Virus record (IMG/VR): IMGVR_UViG_2545824543_000001
Length of the DNA: 45,840 nt
From: a virus
Direction: 5' to 3' (one strand)
Within the stretch, counting starts at the first letter, position 1; every line of letters starts with the position of its first letter. The position numbers were made by a program, and so were the translations under genes. Of the stretch, positions 7,270 through 45,840 are shown piece after piece. The notes beneath the pieces are model-generated. The model had not been told where the DNA came from and searched no databases. It saw only the letters and a list, made by a program, of their open reading frames with translations.

Positions 7270-7887
7270 ATGTCAGATACAGCGCACGTCGACAGCGAGT
7301 GGTTTCGCACACGGTTCGCTCAGAAGGGAACGTCTTATAGGGCGTTCGCTCGCGAGCATGGCATGGACCCATCCGCCGTGTCGCGCATGCTGACAGGTCA
7401 AAGACGAATGCAGAGGGATGAAGCCGCCGCCATCGCTCAATTTATCGGCGCACCAGTCAGCGAAGTTTTGAAACATGCGGGCGTAACCATCGACGGCGAG
7501 TTCACGCCGATACTGCTCGTCGCAACGATCAATGAGCACGGCCAAATCGAGCGCCTACCGGAGCCGCGACCGTTGCCGCATTCAGTGATCGAGCGAGCGC
7601 AGTCTGCGATTGATGCGGTCCCGCGTGTTCTCGCTGCGCAGATTCGTGCGCTGACTGGACCGTTGACCGTCATGGATGATGCGCTTGTATTGTTCAGCCA
7701 CACCGATGACGTTGAGCCTACTTCGATAGGTGCGTTGTCTATCTGCCGGAACTTCGCGGGCGATCAAATCCTCGCCAAGATCGAGCGCGCCAGGAAGACC
7801 GGCGAGGCGCGCGTCGTCACGATTGACGGCAAGGTCAAGGAATTTGACCTGCAAACAGCGACGCCAATTCTGACGATCATTCCATAA
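7270..7887 (+). CDS. CI-like repressor (XRE-type HTH N-terminus, non-S24-looking C-terminal domain)
   Basis: 205 aa. HTH is SYRAFAREHGMDPSAVSRMLTGQRRM. Divergent from the Cro-like gene and followed by a strong hairpin terminator. Confidence 0.7.
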   Translation: MSDTAHVDSEWFRTRFAQKGTSYRAFAREHGMDPSAVSRMLTGQRRMQRDEAAAIAQFIGAPVSEVLKHAGVTIDGEFTPILLVATINEHGQIERLPEPRPLPHSVIERAQSAIDAVPRVLAAQIRALTGPLTVMDDALVLFSHTDDVEPTSIGALSICRNFAGDQILAKIERARKTGEARVVTIDGKVKEFDLQTATPILTIIP

Positions 7888-8192: not shown

Positions 8193-9056
8193 ATGGCATC
8201 AGCCCAAAAAGTCAAGGACGACATTAAGCCCGGCATTTATGCGGGCATCCCCAACGAGGCGTATCATTCAGGCCCAGGCATTTCCAAGTCCGGCCTTTGG
8301 ACGATACACACCAAGTCACCGGCTCATTTCAAGTTCGGAGAGCGCAAGGAATCGACGGCTTTCGACATTGGCGAAGCTTGTCACCTTGCCATTCTTGAGC
8401 CGAACCTGTTCGAGAAGAAAGTCGTGCGCGGTCCCGAAGACCGTCGCGGCAACAAGTGGAAAGACCTTGCCGAAGTCTGCGGCATCGACGGAAAGCTGCT
8501 GCTGACATCTGGCGATTACGACAGCGCTCTCGCTATTCGCGACGCCGTGCATGCTGACGCATTCGTCAGCGGCATCGTCACCAACGAAAACGCGACCATC
8601 GAAACGTCTGGCTATTGGGTCGACGAGGAAACCGGCCTGCTCTGCCGTTGCCGCCCGGATCTTTACCGCCCCGACCTCAGCGTCATGGTCGACGTTAAAT
8701 CGACCGTCAGCGCACACCCCGACGCGTTCGCTAAGAGCGTCACCAACTACGGCTACCACGCGCAGGAAGCATTCTATTCAGACGGCTGGCGTGCGCTCGG
8801 GCAGAACGTCGACGGATTTGTGTTTCTCGCATGGGAGAAAACGAGCCCCTACGCGTTCGGGATCTACGAGCTACCCCCGGCAATCGTCGAGGAAGGCCGC
8901 GCCATCATTCGCCGCTCGCTCGAAACTTACGCTGTGTGCCAGCGCTCGAACTCATGGCCCGCCTACGGCCAAGGCGTCCAAGAGCTTGATTTCAAGCGTT
9001 GGGCCTACCGCCTGACTGAAGCCCCGTCAGCACTCGATACGGAGCTTTCAGCGTGA
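8193..9056 (+). CDS. RecE-like PD-(D/E)XK exonuclease (DUF3799-type)
   Basis: 287 aa. GISKSGLW...HLAILEP...CRPDLY...MVDVKST...YGYHAQEAFY pattern. Lies directly upstream of recT. Confidence 0.7.
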   Translation: MASAQKVKDDIKPGIYAGIPNEAYHSGPGISKSGLWTIHTKSPAHFKFGERKESTAFDIGEACHLAILEPNLFEKKVVRGPEDRRGNKWKDLAEVCGIDGKLLLTSGDYDSALAIRDAVHADAFVSGIVTNENATIETSGYWVDEETGLLCRCRPDLYRPDLSVMVDVKSTVSAHPDAFAKSVTNYGYHAQEAFYSDGWRALGQNVDGFVFLAWEKTSPYAFGIYELPPAIVEEGRAIIRRSLETYAVCQRSNSWPAYGQGVQELDFKRWAYRLTEAPSALDTELSA

Positions 9057-9250
9057 AGCTCTCCGTCCAGACGCGGCTTTATTGGGAGGCCGCACACTTC
9101 TTTCGCCGGTCCGGAAAATCGGACCTAACCATAGCAAAAAAATTTCTCGAAAAGGTCGCGGCCGACGCGCCCGCCCGTCTCAAAGACCGAGCAATCAACG
9201 TCCTCGTGGAGATCGACAATGAGCAATTCAACCGCGCTTGCAACCGCTGA
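9053..9250 (+). CDS. Hypothetical protein
   Basis: 65-aa ORF starting at a GTGA overlap with the upstream stop. Overlaps the recT start by 32 nt. Confidence 0.45.
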   Translation: MKLSVQTRLYWEAAHFFRRSGKSDLTIAKKFLEKVAADAPARLKDRAINVLVEIDNEQFNRACNR

Positions 9251-10148
9251 CCAGCGTCAAGCTACACTTCGCAATGCCCTCGTGAAAATGGCCCCGGAAT
9301 TTAGCAAGGCGTTGCCGGGCCATATTACGGCCGACCGCTTCGTGCGAACGGCCCAGACAGCAATCGCACTCACGCGCAACATCGACCGCGTGAGGAACCC
9401 ACAGTCGTTGCTTGCAGCCTGCACAAAGGCCGCAGCAGACGGGCTTATTCTGGACGGGCGCGAGGCCGCGCTTGTCATCGACTACAACGGCGAAGCTCAG
9501 TACCGCCCGATGATACGCGGCTTGCTCAAGCTCGCGTATCAGAGCGGCGAGCTTAAAGGGATCGTTGTCGAAGTTGTGCGGCAGGGCGATGTCTTCAGGC
9601 ACCGGCCGACGAACCTGCTCGAGCCGATCACGCACGAGATCGACCACGACGCCGAACGCGGCGAGCCGCGCGTCGTCTATGCGATGGCCGAATTGAAGGA
9701 AGGCGGCATCGTTCACGAGGTTATGTCAGTCGCAGCGATCAATCGCATTCGCGACCGCTCTGATGGTTGGAAAGCCTTTCAGGCCGGTAAGATCAAGTCG
9801 ACGCCTTGGGGTACGGATTGGGAAGAAATGGCGCGCAAGACCGTATTCCGCCGCCTCTCGAAATATCTGCCGTCGAGCAATGAGAAATTGCACCAAGCGG
9901 CCGAACGTCCCGACGACGCCGTGACTATCGATGGCGAAGCCGTCGAGACGACGCCGCCGACGACGACGAAGGCACCGGCAGGCCCGAAGACGCGCGGCGG
10001 CGCAGCGGCGGCACTTAGAGCCGTTCAGCCCGTCCAGCAGCCGCTTGAACTCGATCCCGAGCGCGAGCCCGCAGAGCAAACCGGCTTCGACCTTGAGACG
10101 GGCGAAATCCTCGAAACCAGAGCGGACTACCCGGGCGACGACATCTAA
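9219..10148 (+). CDS. recT: RecT-family single-strand annealing recombinase
   Basis: 309 aa. RFVRTAQTAI...AADGLILDGREAALV...YRPMIRGLLKLAYQSGELK is typical of RecT. Confidence 0.85.
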   Translation: MSNSTALATADQRQATLRNALVKMAPEFSKALPGHITADRFVRTAQTAIALTRNIDRVRNPQSLLAACTKAAADGLILDGREAALVIDYNGEAQYRPMIRGLLKLAYQSGELKGIVVEVVRQGDVFRHRPTNLLEPITHEIDHDAERGEPRVVYAMAELKEGGIVHEVMSVAAINRIRDRSDGWKAFQAGKIKSTPWGTDWEEMARKTVFRRLSKYLPSSNEKLHQAAERPDDAVTIDGEAVETTPPTTTKAPAGPKTRGGAAAALRAVQPVQQPLELDPEREPAEQTGFDLETGEILETRADYPGDDI

Positions 10149-31930: not shown

Positions 31931-32944
31931 TTATGCGTATGCCGGAACAAGCGCCTCGGTATTCAGAAGCGCGTCCGTCTCGCGGATCGGAATACCGCGA
32001 TACGTCTTGACTTCCTTGCCTTCGACAACGGCCTGCGACAGACCCGTATAGTTCGCGTTTGCAGCAAGAAGCGCGCGGTCGCTCGACTGAGCGTCAAGGA
32101 TTTCGAGAACGTCGCGGTTCATGTAGATCGCGATCCGGCTCGACTGAGCGTCGCGACGGCGCGACTGCAAGCGGTAGTACCCCTTGCGGAGCAGCGCCCA
32201 CAGATCGACAGTGCCCGCCAGCATTTCGGAAACGTCGATGTTCGCGATACGGGCGTTATAGCGCCAGTCTTTCACGAACATGCCGATATGCCAGTTAAAC
32301 AGCGTCTCCTTGACGTAGTAGGGATTGCCCGCGCTATCGGTAACGCGCTGCTCGCCCTTGTCCTCAATCGAGATGCCCGCCTTCATGCCCTTGGGATAGA
32401 GCAACGAGGTTGCATGATCGCCCCAGGTAACGAACCAGATCGACGTGTTGTCGCTTCCGGAGCCGCCGCCATGGATAACCTGCTCGCCCGCGCCAGGACC
32501 GCCGCGCACGGAGTAACGAGCCGATAGACCCTTGAACTTGTCAGGCGTCGTCGCCGTGTCGTGATAGAACAGACCCGTTGCCATTTCCTGATTCATGGCT
32601 TCGAGATACGGAGCGCTATCGACGAGACGCGCCTTTGCAGGATCGGGCGCAAGCTTGAGCAAGCGCGTATCGATTTGCGAGCCAGCTTCGAGGAAGCCGG
32701 TCGTATCGTCGACCTGCTGCATCGTCGCCTTTGACTGCGGAACGCCTTTGTAAAGACGGCCCCAGCCGACAGTCGGCAAACCTGTGCGGATCATGTGGCG
32801 ATGCTGCGCCTGCATGTTGCACTCGGTCGCGATTGCGTCGTCTAGGATAGAATTTTGCTGATTGAGAATTTCAGCAACCGTTCCCTCAGCGGACCCCTTA
32901 AAGGCGTCGATGAGGTTAGGGAAAGATTTGCCAATAGTAGCCAT
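31931..32944 (-). CDS. Major capsid protein (BPP-1 Bbp17-like)
   Basis: 337 aa. Positioned between the scaffold and cement genes and followed by hairpins. Size and context fit the BPP-1-type capsid. Confidence 0.8.
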   Translation of the reverse strand: MATIGKSFPNLIDAFKGSAEGTVAEILNQQNSILDDAIATECNMQAQHRHMIRTGLPTVGWGRLYKGVPQSKATMQQVDDTTGFLEAGSQIDTRLLKLAPDPAKARLVDSAPYLEAMNQEMATGLFYHDTATTPDKFKGLSARYSVRGGPGAGEQVIHGGGSGSDNTSIWFVTWGDHATSLLYPKGMKAGISIEDKGEQRVTDSAGNPYYVKETLFNWHIGMFVKDWRYNARIANIDVSEMLAGTVDLWALLRKGYYRLQSRRRDAQSSRIAIYMNRDVLEILDAQSSDRALLAANANYTGLSQAVVEGKEVKTYRGIPIRETDALLNTEALVPAYA

Positions 32945-43409: not shown

Positions 43410-43416
43410 CGACCGA

Positions 43417-43447
43417 GCCCGGCGAACCATTGCCGGGCTTTTTATTT
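43417..43447 (+). terminator. Rho-independent terminator
   Basis: GCCCGGC-GAACCATT-GCCGGGC followed by TTTTTATTT. Confidence 0.8.
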
Positions 43448-44133: not shown

Positions 44134-44400
44134 ATGAACACAGCATTCCTTTTGATGGCTCAATATGAAGGCAAGGCGGTCATTCCGCTTGACGACGTTT
44201 GCCGCGACTACTTCAGCCACCTGACGCCCGCGAAGCTTTCATATAAGGCGACCGCTGGCGAGATCGATTTGCCGATTGTGCGGATCGAGACGAGCCAGAA
44301 GGCCGCGCGCGGCGTTCACCTTCAGGACTTGGCGGCATGGATTGACGCCCGCCGAGCAGCGGCGCAGAAGGAAAACGATCAGTTGCAGGGGAGACGGTAA
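44134..44400 (+). CDS. PrtN-family (pyocin activator-like / excisionase-fold) DNA-binding protein
   Basis: MNTAFLLMAQYEGKAVIPLDDVCRDYFSHLTPAKL...GEIDLPIVRIETSQKAARGVHLQDLAAWID matches my recollection of the PrtN family. Ends in QLQGRR. An alternative start lies at 44110. Confidence 0.65.
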   Translation: MNTAFLLMAQYEGKAVIPLDDVCRDYFSHLTPAKLSYKATAGEIDLPIVRIETSQKAARGVHLQDLAAWIDARRAAAQKENDQLQGRR

Positions 44401-44401
44401 A

Positions 44402-44617
44402 GTGAAGGTTGAAATTCACGGCAACGTGCGCGGCACGCCGGAAGTACGCAAGATATGGGAGGGTGAACTGTCTGCTTTGCCCCGACCAGACGACTACATA
44501 GTTCTAGATGAGGACAAAGCCGCCCTTTCAGTGCGCAATGTCATGATCATCGCGCCAACGAACAAAGCAATAATCAACGTGTGGGCACCCGAAAACGAGT
44601 ACCCTGCGATAGACTAA
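44402..44617 (+). CDS. Hypothetical small protein
   Basis: GTG start in the conserved context TAAAGTGAAGG. 71 aa. The TAA stop is followed in frame by CCQLQGRR-stop. Confidence 0.5.
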   Translation: MKVEIHGNVRGTPEVRKIWEGELSALPRPDDYIVLDEDKAALSVRNVMIIAPTNKAIINVWAPENEYPAID

Positions 44618-44648
44618 TGTTGTCAGCTTCAAGGGAGGCGATGAAGCA

Positions 44649-44873
44649 ATGAGCGAAGAAAAATTCTTTCGATCCCTCGTCTTACAGTCGCTTTGGATCT
44701 TGATCGTTTGCGCGTTCGGCGGCCGACCGAGAGGCAGGGCGGAAGAATTGCGCGGCGAACTTATCCGCTACTTTGATGAGCACGGAAACCAGACCGAGAG
44801 CGCACACGAGTATCGGCGCACGACTACGTTCCCGGCTCTGCCAGCAGAAGACCAGCTTCAAGGGAGGCGCTAA
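44649..44873 (+). CDS. Hypothetical small protein with one hydrophobic segment
   Basis: 74 aa. SLVLQSLWILIVCAFGG. Ends in QLQGRR. Confidence 0.55.
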   Translation: MSEEKFFRSLVLQSLWILIVCAFGGRPRGRAEELRGELIRYFDEHGNQTESAHEYRRTTTFPALPAEDQLQGRR

Positions 44874-45044
44874 ATGCCAGTTATCTACTATTGCGATAGG
44901 TGCGGCACAGAGCACAAGATCACATCTAGGCCGAAGGTAATACCGACCAGGATAACGTGTCGGTGCGGAGTTACATTGACCATAGACGACCCCGAATTGC
45001 GAGAGTTGCCAGAGGCAGAAGAACAGCTTCAAGGGAGGCGATAA
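44874..45044 (+). CDS. Small four-Cys zinc-ribbon protein (56 aa, not in the ORF track)
   Basis: Hand translation: MPVIYYCDRCGTEHKITSRPKVIPTRITCRCGVTLTIDDPELRELPEAEEQLQGRR. The ATG directly follows the upstream TAA. Confidence 0.5.
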   Translation: MPVIYYCDRCGTEHKITSRPKVIPTRITCRCGVTLTIDDPELRELPEAEEQLQGRR

Positions 45045-45045
45045 A

Positions 45046-45354
45046 GTGAAGGAATCGCAAACCTATCCATCCTTAATCGACGCATCCGGGAGCGCGGCGG
45101 AAAGTATTGTCGCTGAAATCCTGAATAAGCAGAACCCGATTTTGGATGACGCTATTTTAGACATGCAAGCGCCGCATCGCTACCTGATCCGCATGGACTT
45201 GCCAGGAGTTGATTGGGGGCAACTCTACAGAGGCGTGCAAATTTCTTATGAGGCAAGGCAGCGCTTCAATGGTCGCAACTGGCGACGGATAAAGCGAGAA
45301 GTGCGAAAGGCCGTAAAAGCAGCGAAGCGCGAACGGCTTCAAGGGAGAAGATGA
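45046..45354 (+). CDS. Truncated paralogue of the major capsid protein N-terminus fused to a basic tail
   Basis: aa 7-67 align to capsid aa 8-71 with 38 of 61 identities by hand (LIDA, VAEILN, QN-ILDDAI, MQA-HR, IR, LP-V-WG-LY-GV). Ends in RLQGRR. GTG start in the TAAAGTGAAGG context. Confidence 0.65.
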   Translation: MKESQTYPSLIDASGSAAESIVAEILNKQNPILDDAILDMQAPHRYLIRMDLPGVDWGQLYRGVQISYEARQRFNGRNWRRIKREVRKAVKAAKRERLQGRR

Positions 45355-45668
45355 TGGACCCAGCCGACCTAAACGACCCCGCGACGGCAGAGGCTTTTGT
45401 GCGCGAGAGCATCGCAGACCTTACCGAGACGATTGCAAAATTTGAAGCAGCCGCCGAACAGAAGATTCAGGGATACCGCAAACGCTTCCCTGCAAATTCA
45501 TCGTTGCTGCTGGATCTCTATCATTCAGTGCGCGAGGAGTTGCGCGAAACGACGGCAGATATGAGGATGCGGCGCAATCTGCTTCTTGGAATTATCGAGC
45601 GCGTCGAGTCGACGAGACGCCACCACGAGCCGATCAGATTAGGGGAACCGATCAGCACCCCCGAGTGA
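45351..45668 (+). CDS. Hypothetical helical protein
   Basis: 105-aa ORF starting at an ATGA overlap. Last gene before the terminator and att-like region. Confidence 0.55.
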   Translation: MMDPADLNDPATAEAFVRESIADLTETIAKFEAAAEQKIQGYRKRFPANSSLLLDLYHSVREELRETTADMRMRRNLLLGIIERVESTRRHHEPIRLGEPISTPE

Positions 45669-45694
45669 CCACATAAGTATTACATGACGAATGA

Positions 45695-45730
45695 AGCCCG
45701 GCTTAACCCATTGCCGGGCTTTTGTTTTTT
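45695..45730 (+). terminator. Rho-independent terminator closing the right-end cassette
   Basis: AGCCCGGC-TTAACCCATT-GCCGGGCT followed by TTTGTTTTTT. Near-duplicate of the terminator at 43417-43447. Confidence 0.85.
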
Positions 45731-45745
45731 CAGAGCGCCGTCCAA

Positions 45746-45840
45746 TCCATCATGGGTGCGATACTGAATCGGTGATGCGCTGAAATCGCTGAATTATTTG
45801 ACATTCCCGATGAAATCCGTTGCGCATGTTGCTGTTAACC
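45746..45840. repeat. Right copy of the exact 95-nt terminal direct repeat
   Basis: Identical to 1-95. Its extent beyond the window edges is unknowable. Confidence 0.95.

Follow-up and report, generated by a model that had tools for sequence, protein, structure and literature searches.

IMG/VR virus record IMGVR_UViG_2545824543_000001, a stretch of 45,840 nucleotides (nt; the window), is a contig from Hyphomicrobium sp. 99 that represents a temperate, podovirus-like phage. In this phage rdfN, encoding its putative excision factor, a PrtN-like protein of the RdfN family, is followed by an array of five small open reading frames (ORFs; p71, p74, p56, p102 and p105) with copies of one short sequence at the successive gene junctions, and these copies give several of the encoded proteins a common C-terminal peptide, QLQGRR. 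The repeat is genuine, and what explains it is for the most part ordinary: the 3′ end of rdfN, together with the ribosome-binding site (RBS) embedded in it, was duplicated as small genes accreted behind it. The probability of this reading is put at roughly 0.6, and it includes the proposals that the duplicated junction would now serve translational coupling and that the shared peptide would be hitchhiking.

The copies start at 44380, 44624, 44853, 45024 and 45334, all on the + strand and with spacings of 244, 229, 171 and 310 nt. The 17-mer CAGCTTCAAGGGAGGCG is identical at 44624, 44853 and 45024, and the copies at 44380 and 45334 have diverged from it. These five copies, their positions and orientation and the three identical 17-mers had been described in an earlier reading of the same DNA (the original prediction) and were all recovered. 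Allowing up to three mismatches, five matches to the 17-mer were found against 0.22 expected, namely four array copies and an unrelated three-mismatch match at 32683, the copy at 44380 differing at five positions and hence falling outside this count. The degenerate core CARGGGAGRNG also gave five matches, against 0.12 expected, and none of 100 shuffles reached five. With observed matches so far above expectation and shuffles that never reach five, chance is excluded as the cause of the repeat. The last 95 nt of the window (45746–45840) are identical to the first 95 (1–95), indicating a closed circular genome of 45,745 bp, excised or replicating rather than integrated as a prophage, such that the motif census covers the whole genome; it agrees with the earlier reading, in which the motif had not been seen elsewhere in the window on either strand. 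An assembly artefact was ruled out, as a separately assembled Logan contig (L005) has the same five copies in an identical structure. Nor does the array resemble clustered regularly interspaced short palindromic repeats (CRISPR), for which repeats of 23–47 nt and uniform spacers of 26–72 nt were sought, the array intervals being coding and 171–310 nt long.

The repeat unit, or module, is longer than the 17-mer. Copies 2 and 4 share 23 nt, and copies 3 and 4 are 93.5% identical over 31 nt, with extra upstream bases in common (P = 0.003). A stop codon and the next gene's start codon both fall within the extended unit. Copy 1 (44380–44408) is the resident rdfN tail CAGTTGCAGGGGAGACGG, followed by TAA, a single A and GTGAAGG at the start of p71, and the sequence on its 3′ side, TAAAGTGAAGG, is the same as that of copy 4. 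Copy 2 (44624–44652) is an untranslated module, CAGCTTCAAGGGAGGCGATGA, starting 6 nt past the p71 stop codon. Copies 3 (44844–44876; GCAGAAGACCAGCTTCAAGGGAGGCGCTAAATG) and 4 (45015–45052; GCAGAAGAACAGCTTCAAGGGAGGCGATAAAGTGAAGG) come next, and copy 5 (45334–45356; CGGCTTCAAGGGAGAAGATGATG), the most diverged, has an ATGA stop/start overlap. Between copy 2 and p74 there is a three-codon mini-ORF, ATG AAG CAA TGA (44641–44652), which overlaps the module stop codon and the p74 start codon to give a chain of ATGA overlaps. The original prediction held that each copy closes one ORF, and this applies to copies 1, 3, 4 and 5 but not to copy 2, p71 ending earlier at its own TAA. It was borne out in that each copy supplies a GGGAG Shine-Dalgarno (SD) sequence for the next gene, in that the element lies in the same frame in every copy (copy 2 is in frame yet untranslated) and in the tails themselves, the PrtN-like protein, p74 and p56 ending in QLQGRR and p102 in RLQGRR.

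The source of the repeat is the 3′ end of rdfN. A PrtN-based locus search yielded 43 loci (35 genomic and 8 viral), and the five closest RdfN orthologues among them (77–81% identity) all have DQLQGRR as their C-terminus, encoded differently in each, the tails showing 5–6 synonymous codon differences. These orthologues come from Bradyrhizobium, two Hyphomicrobiales metagenome-assembled genomes, Mesorhizobium waimense and an IMG/VR contig matching the M. waimense locus (loci L006–L009 and L041). In an alignment of 23 RdfN sequences the C-terminal motif KE..QL.G is conserved with E80 and L84 invariant. Proteins of this RdfN clade thus natively end in QLQGRR. The array consensus CAGCTTCAAGGGAGGCGA matches the 3′ end of rdfN in L007, CAGCTTCAAGGGAGACGA, at 17 of 18 nt, and array copies 2–4 match the resident rdfN tail at 13 of 18 nt. 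The sole difference from L007, AGA to AGG, creates GGGAGG, a better SD. Judged by these matches the array copies are remnants of an rdfN 3′ end, of an allele other than the resident one, and their derivation from a non-resident allele would therefore point to exchange with another phage. Upstream of the tail the homology to rdfN is marginal (P = 0.046 for copy 3, 0.11 for copy 4 and 0.33 for copy 5), and no upstream extension of it was found at copy 2.

Comparison with relatives identifies where the copies were inserted. In relatives the order is rdfN, terminator, attP (the phage attachment site, with a dusA 5′ end) and the integrase gene int, and the slot that separates rdfN from attP holds at most one gene. 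In L006 and L007 a hairpin with a GCCCGGC/GCCGGGC stem lies within about 20 nt of rdfN, in L009 the slot holds one coupled gene and in Ralstonia phage NK-7 (Gervaisevirus) prtN is followed by about 55 nt, a dusA-type attP and int. In the present phage the order is rdfN, five small ORFs, terminator, attP and int, the terminator (45696–45730, + strand) being a GCCCGGC..GCCGGGC hairpin followed by a T-run, with the same stem that stands directly 3′ of rdfN in L006 and L007. On this comparison the slot is normally empty, and here it holds five extra small ORFs, each preceded by a junction copy. The proposal in the original prediction that the motif is a recombination junction is in keeping with these findings, rdfN 3′ remnants bracketing genes in a slot that is empty in relatives.

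None of the 43 PrtN-bearing loci has its own rdfN tail duplicated, and the array is absent from all of them. The wider search for the 17-mer that the original prediction had proposed returned only chance or unrelated matches outside this phage and no related locus carrying the array. In IMG/VR the exact 17-mer gave four chance matches, all inside genes, and the L007-type 18-mer seven unrelated ones, while in metagenomes the 17-mer with R at one position gave at least 120 matches, due to chance or to an unrelated marine repeat of about 65 nt, with none of the matches listed near a PrtN gene. This repeated element, ..GTGATTGGGGTGAGTGAGAGCAGCCAACAACGCTGCAGCTTCAAGGGAGACGGGTATA, holds the 17-mer by coincidence (L056–L170; Ga0316209, Ga0316204, TARA) and could be either a mobile intron's 3′ end or some other dispersed repeat of a marine organism. 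A search of IMG/VR based on the neighbouring p78 found three distant loci, all without the array.

Each copy has the geometry of a coupled junction, with the SD in the upstream ORF and adjacent or overlapping stop and start codons. GGGAG(G) lies 4–10 nt ahead of the start codon in each copy, inside the coding tail, and stop-to-start gaps run from −4 to +4 nt (TAA-A-GTG, TAAATG and ATGA). Predicted pairing with a generic anti-SD amounts to −15.3 kcal/mol for copy 2, −11.8 for copy 3 and −15.2 for copy 4, copies 2 and 4 being the strongest of 32 starts examined, and AAGGGAGG occurs in the genome only in copies 2–4. RNA structure or a known RNA family at the junctions was ruled out, folding z-scores of −0.04 to +1.3 indicating unstructured sequence and Rfam giving no match. 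No promoter-like site was found, and a scan of the + strand gave no terminator from 43448 to the hairpin at 45696, and the add-on ORFs would therefore depend on the rdfN transcript for their translation. The module precedes a start codon in five of five copies and is absent after the last gene, and the translated tail is missing from two of the six proteins of the string (p71 and p105). The module thus tracks downstream starts and not protein ends, which fits an RBS or coupling role and not a protein tag. The coupling role suggested in the original prediction accordingly agrees with the SD inside each copy, the narrow stop-to-start spacing and the strong predicted pairing.

A strong RBS could also have arisen repeatedly by independent convergence, without common descent of the copies, and pairing with the 16S 3′ end is possible for 12 of the 17 bases (AAGGGAGGCGAU). 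This reading is effectively refuted by the extended identity between copies, which goes beyond the SD into CAGCTTC and reaches the 31 nt of copies 3 and 4 and the 23 nt of copies 2 and 4; in addition, the other genes of the phage have ordinary, varied SDs. It is very improbable, if somewhat less far-fetched, that a phage regulator binds the motif, as DNA or RNA, in the manner of a stoperator or with RdfN, CI or Cro as the binding protein. The asymmetry of the motif, its single orientation and its conservation beyond the SD core (the CAGCTTC part) are what such a site might show, but all five occurrences fall in one co-directional string of 1 kb with none near a promoter, operator or attP, the motif is absent from relatives and the extra conserved bases are accounted for by descent from rdfN codons. 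The genome-wide or promoter-associated distribution of stoperators and repressor operators was looked for and not found, the motif being confined to the array, such that the stoperator-like site offered in the original prediction finds no support.

Under the junction-duplication reading the copied unit would be the last six to seven codons of rdfN ((D)QLQGRR) together with the stop codon and the initiation codon of the following gene, a strong SD lying inside the tail. Staggered illegitimate or short-homology joins between co-replicating phage genomes could duplicate the junction around an insert, each insertion keeping or recreating a junction copy, and selection would retain only those products in which the upstream ORF stops next to a downstream SD and start. 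The module would in this way give ribosome binding and termination-reinitiation coupling to promoterless add-ons carried on the rdfN transcript, and the tails on p74, p56 and p102 would result from translation running on into the copied rdfN codons. Phage recombinases of the Rad52-like type act on short homologies and thereby drive mosaicism (PMC3945230), and the RecE/RecT pair of this phage is a possible driver of such short-homology recombination. Gene conversion may keep copies 2–4 uniform, and the same copies should be hotspots of cassette loss.

Comparable duplications, of unrelated sequences, occur at two other loci. In the M. waimense prophage (L009/L041) an exonuclease gene and the gene after it both end in GCAAAAGAGGACGAAATGA, identical over 19 nt (1610–1628 and 2095–2113 in L009, with the same in L041), giving QKRTK tails and including the SD AAGAGGA and an ATGA overlap. 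The QKRTK tail appears to be native to the exonuclease and to have been copied behind the following gene. In the metagenomic contig L049 the sequence ATCATAAGAGGCCG stands at two gene ends (1133–1146 and 1574–1587) that flank a p71 homologue, the p71-family protein P0005 being 56% identical to p71, such that p71-family genes are found between duplicated junctions in two unrelated phage contexts. The recurrence of duplicated 3′ ends and RBSs with unrelated sequences points to a general process of insertion and selection and argues against a function specific to QLQGRR.

These loci also bear on the idea that the copies are recombination sites of a dedicated, integron-like cassette system, the neighbouring integrase using the motif as a secondary attachment site. 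Repeats in one orientation do separate single small ORFs within about 400 nt of attP and int, and the non-resident origin of copies 2–4 implies import from another phage. However, the motif is unlike both the dusA attP core and the arm-like GTAATAC repeats, has no inverted-repeat or attC-like structure and forms such an array in none of the 43 PrtN-bearing loci, and the analogous duplications use the 3′ end of the local gene rather than a fixed site. A dedicated cassette system is therefore rated improbable.

Whether the shared peptide is itself selected was approached through the differences between copies. The original prediction counted seven synonymous differences to one non-synonymous and took this as a sign of constraint on the peptide; the arithmetic is right, but the extension of that constraint to the small proteins fails. 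Five of the seven synonymous differences separate copy 1, the resident rdfN tail, from the array copies, and as five orthologues keep QLQGRR with other codons these differences reflect constraint on RdfN. Copy 2 keeps 100% nucleotide identity though it is untranslated as a tail. The QLQGRR shared by p74, p56 and p102 is probably a hitchhiking by-product that would be neutral in these proteins.

Several points weigh against the account preferred here. The translated array copies differ among themselves by three synonymous changes and one non-synonymous change (P of about 0.06 by hand calculation with about 26% synonymous sites), a count too small to decide, and weak selection at the peptide level may be present. 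All four non-native copies lie in the QLQGRR frame, for which the chance is 0.012 if calculated naively and about 0.06 if viability is limited to the two frames that offer a stop close by; copies 3 and 4 are not independent events, and the frame of copy 2 has no consequence. Identical direct repeats of 17–31 nt should be prone to deletion in a RecET phage, and from their persistence the array must be either very recent or under selection. No relative with a variant array was found, leaving cassette gain or loss at the module unobserved, and the pairing energies refer to the generic alphaproteobacterial 16S 3′ end rather than to a verified sequence of the host.

The frame and the synonymous changes would be explained if QLQGRR were a functional C-terminal tag taken from RdfN, acting in docking on the integrase (Int) or as a protease degron, by which the add-on proteins would share the recruitment or the breakdown of the excision factor. 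The C-terminal tails of other excisionases, such as that of lambda Xis, contact integrase, and the conservation of the tail in RdfN orthologues shows that it matters for RdfN; all copies are in frame and three of the four differences among the translated array copies are synonymous. Against this, the perfectly conserved copy 2 is untranslated, p71 and p105 have no tail, copy 5 carries a Q-to-R change, and the tail is borne by unrelated orphan proteins and one fragment of a capsid protein. Duplicated tails at other junctions have quite different peptides, such as QKRTK in L009, and the synonymous signal comes mostly from RdfN itself. Such a tag is thus considered unlikely. The same holds for a broader proposal in which the rdfN-tail module would be a portable in-frame adaptor and the slot a recombinase-independent rack that tags captured DNA with a functional RdfN peptide. 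Were that true, any fragment landing in the slot, even a piece of capsid gene lacking start and stop codons, would obtain an SD, a start, a stop and the RdfN peptide; the peptide would dock on Int or on the protease of RdfN and so co-regulate the add-ons with excision, and the slot would be a nursery of new phage genes with a built-in tag.

The proteins of the array have little in common apart from the tail. RdfN itself (44134–44400, + strand) has 88 amino acids (aa) with its native QLQGRR end and matches PF11112 (E = 2.7e-31) and phrog_1300, annotated as 'excisionase' (E = 9e-34). That the small ORFs might be diverged PrtN paralogues from tandem duplication was ruled out, there being no similarity beyond the tail. 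p71 (44402–44617, + strand) starts with GTG, ends at its own TAA (44615–44617) followed by TGT TGT and lacks the tail. It has 15 homologues among 1.84e9 representative proteins, including phage proteins of 55–95 aa starting MKV.., and these end in varied C-termini of their own, several with ..[DE][YW]PxL[DEK]. The PAID end of p71 had been considered part of an extended repeat (cf. PAED in p74), and this was dropped as ..YPxL[DE] is native to the p71 family. The 71-aa domain of p71 also occurs as 3–11 tandem repeats in proteins of 480–1350 aa (P0004, P0006, P0008, P0012, P0013 and P0016), and on this sequence evidence it is a reusable small domain.

The remaining array ORFs, all on the + strand, are p74 (44649–44873), p56 (44874–45044), p102 (45046–45354) and p105 (45351–45668). 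p74 is an orphan ORF (ORFan) with one hydrophobic helix at residues 6–24 (Kyte-Doolittle hydropathy 1.81 in a 19-residue window) and ends ..LPAEDQLQGRR. p56 is a zinc-ribbon-like ORF with CxxC...CxC that ends ..LPEAEEQLQGRR; it has weak zinc-ribbon Pfam matches only and no match in the phage collection. p102 consists of an N-terminal fragment of a capsid paralogue plus a basic tail and ends RLQGRR. Its residues 5–75 are 53% identical to residues 6–79 of the capsid protein of the phage itself (E = 5e-23) and match positions 6–58 of 313 in PF20911, with the protein as a whole being an ORFan. p102 is a diverged copy of about the first 75 residues of the major capsid protein, whose gene lies at 31931–32944 on the minus strand, and is itself expressed as part of the early/excision operon, where it may act as a decoy or interfering fragment or amount to mere debris. 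p105, the last ORF of the array, is an ORFan that has no tail and no gene after it. Searches among 5.8e9 proteins returned only self-matches for p74, p102 and p105, and PADLOC gave no match for any array protein. Codon scores of the array ORFs run from −0.50 to 0.17 against 0.37 ± 0.12 for the genes of the phage, and their G+C content at third codon positions is 0.56–0.65 against 0.69, with the annotated frame having the best codon score of the three + frames in all five. By these measures the five array ORFs look imported, as foreign or orphan genes.

Elsewhere in the genome are terminase, portal, protease, capsid and tail genes, a gene on the minus strand for a protein of 2759 aa, and genes for a helicase, a primase and a repressor-like helix-turn-helix protein encoded at 7270–7887. 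The tyrosine integrase gene int (187–1284, + strand; phrog_1, E = 4e-37) encodes a protein 50–58% identical to integrases adjoining PrtN-like genes in relatives. The RecE-like exonuclease (8193–9056, + strand; phrog_412, E = 4e-88) and the RecT-like annealing protein (9219–10148, + strand; phrog_148, E = 3e-56) are encoded further on. Near-identical terminator hairpins (GCCCGGC..CCATTGCCGGGCTTTT) at 43415–43447 and 45696–45728 flank the block p155-p78-rdfN-array, and the TTG start of p155 is doubtful as the first hairpin sits within its annotated 5′ end.

The attP site is marked by a surrogate dusA 5′ end, MSNNSAISAHHRFSIAPMMDWT, at 45739–45804 on the minus strand, and in Ralstonia phage NK-7 (L181) this motif stands directly 3′ of prtN, at about 2838–2870. 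GTAATAC occurs three times immediately upstream of int (about 140–186) and once inverted right after p105 (45676–45682), and in relatives (L015–L017, L021, L022, L026, L027 and L036) GTACGAC occurs three times straddling the PrtN stop codon; these repeats are probably arm-type binding sites of attP for Int or a recombination directionality factor. The phage has the traits of a dusA-specific element in its tyrosine integrase gene beside an attP with a replacement dusA 5′ end and in its small PF11112 protein. Such integrative elements have been described, with RdfN-family proteins in 64% of them (PMC4482086), and experiments on a member of the RdfN family other than the protein of this phage have identified it as the recombination directionality factor of dusA-specific elements (PMC8409611).

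If the junction-duplication reading holds, the array shows clearly, and in a form that can be dated, how promoterless genes are added to phages: with each addition the resident gene's end is copied along with its embedded RBS, and newcomers are translated at once via the copied RBS. Shared short termini in phage ORFans need not mean shared function, because junction copying yields a common C-terminal peptide, a point relevant to motif-based annotation and to arguments from the ratio of non-synonymous to synonymous substitution rates (dN/dS) on overlapping coding and regulatory sequence. The two other junction-duplication loci suggest a recurring process that could be surveyed systematically. 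Should the tail be functional after all, the array would provide a modular tag of natural origin, tied to the excision machinery.

Among known systems, integron arrays consist of promoterless single-ORF cassettes in one orientation with a recurring attC, an attI site, a Pc promoter and an adjoining integrase. The likeness of the present array is superficial, lying in the one-orientation string of single ORFs, the recurring element and the integrase gene beside it; there is no imperfect palindrome of the attC type, an attI site and a Pc promoter are apparently lacking, the element is coding sequence with an RBS, and the integrase groups by its context with phage and dusA-type integrases. With dusA-specific elements the likeness is that the donor gene of the tail belongs to the RdfN/PrtN family in the canonical rdfN-attP(dusA′)-int context (PMC8409611; PMC4482086), a keyword search of these two sources giving no mention of a duplicated rdfN 3′ end or of genes arrayed between rdfN and attP. 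In temperate phages, short conserved gene-boundary sequences have been proposed as recombination targets (PMC3974807), and the present array resembles this mosaicism in its short conserved boundaries and in a RecT/RecE pair of the short-homology class (PMC3974807; PMC3945230). Boundary mosaicism is exchange between genomes, whereas here a boundary overlapping coding sequence has been multiplied in tandem within one genome, with a common peptide tail as the product.

The closest described analogue of the module is the Start-Associated Sequence (SAS) of Cluster K mycobacteriophages, with a 13-bp consensus, GGGATAGGAGCCC, and 93 sites over the genomes analysed (PMC3203893). SASs are short, asymmetric repeats in one orientation, with an SD core, extended 16S pairing and conserved non-pairing bases, that stand a few nt (3–8) upstream of the starts of unrelated non-structural genes and sometimes include the upstream stop codon; the module likewise has one orientation, an SD core and a position close upstream of starts. 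The two differ in that the consensus GGGATAGGAGCCC is not matched by CAGCTTCAAGGGAGGCG, in that SASs are spread over half of the genome and conserved cluster-wide while the module is limited to five copies in 1 kb and absent from relatives, and in that SASs have not been reported to encode a shared protein tail while the module derives from the 3′ end of one gene. In translational coupling stop and start codons overlap or adjoin with the SD inside the upstream ORF, and such junctions are normally gene-specific. The junctions of the array resemble these in their gaps of −4 to +4 nt, in their ATGA and TAAATG arrangements and in an SD within the last codons, but differ in that one and the same junction sequence stands at five successive boundaries.

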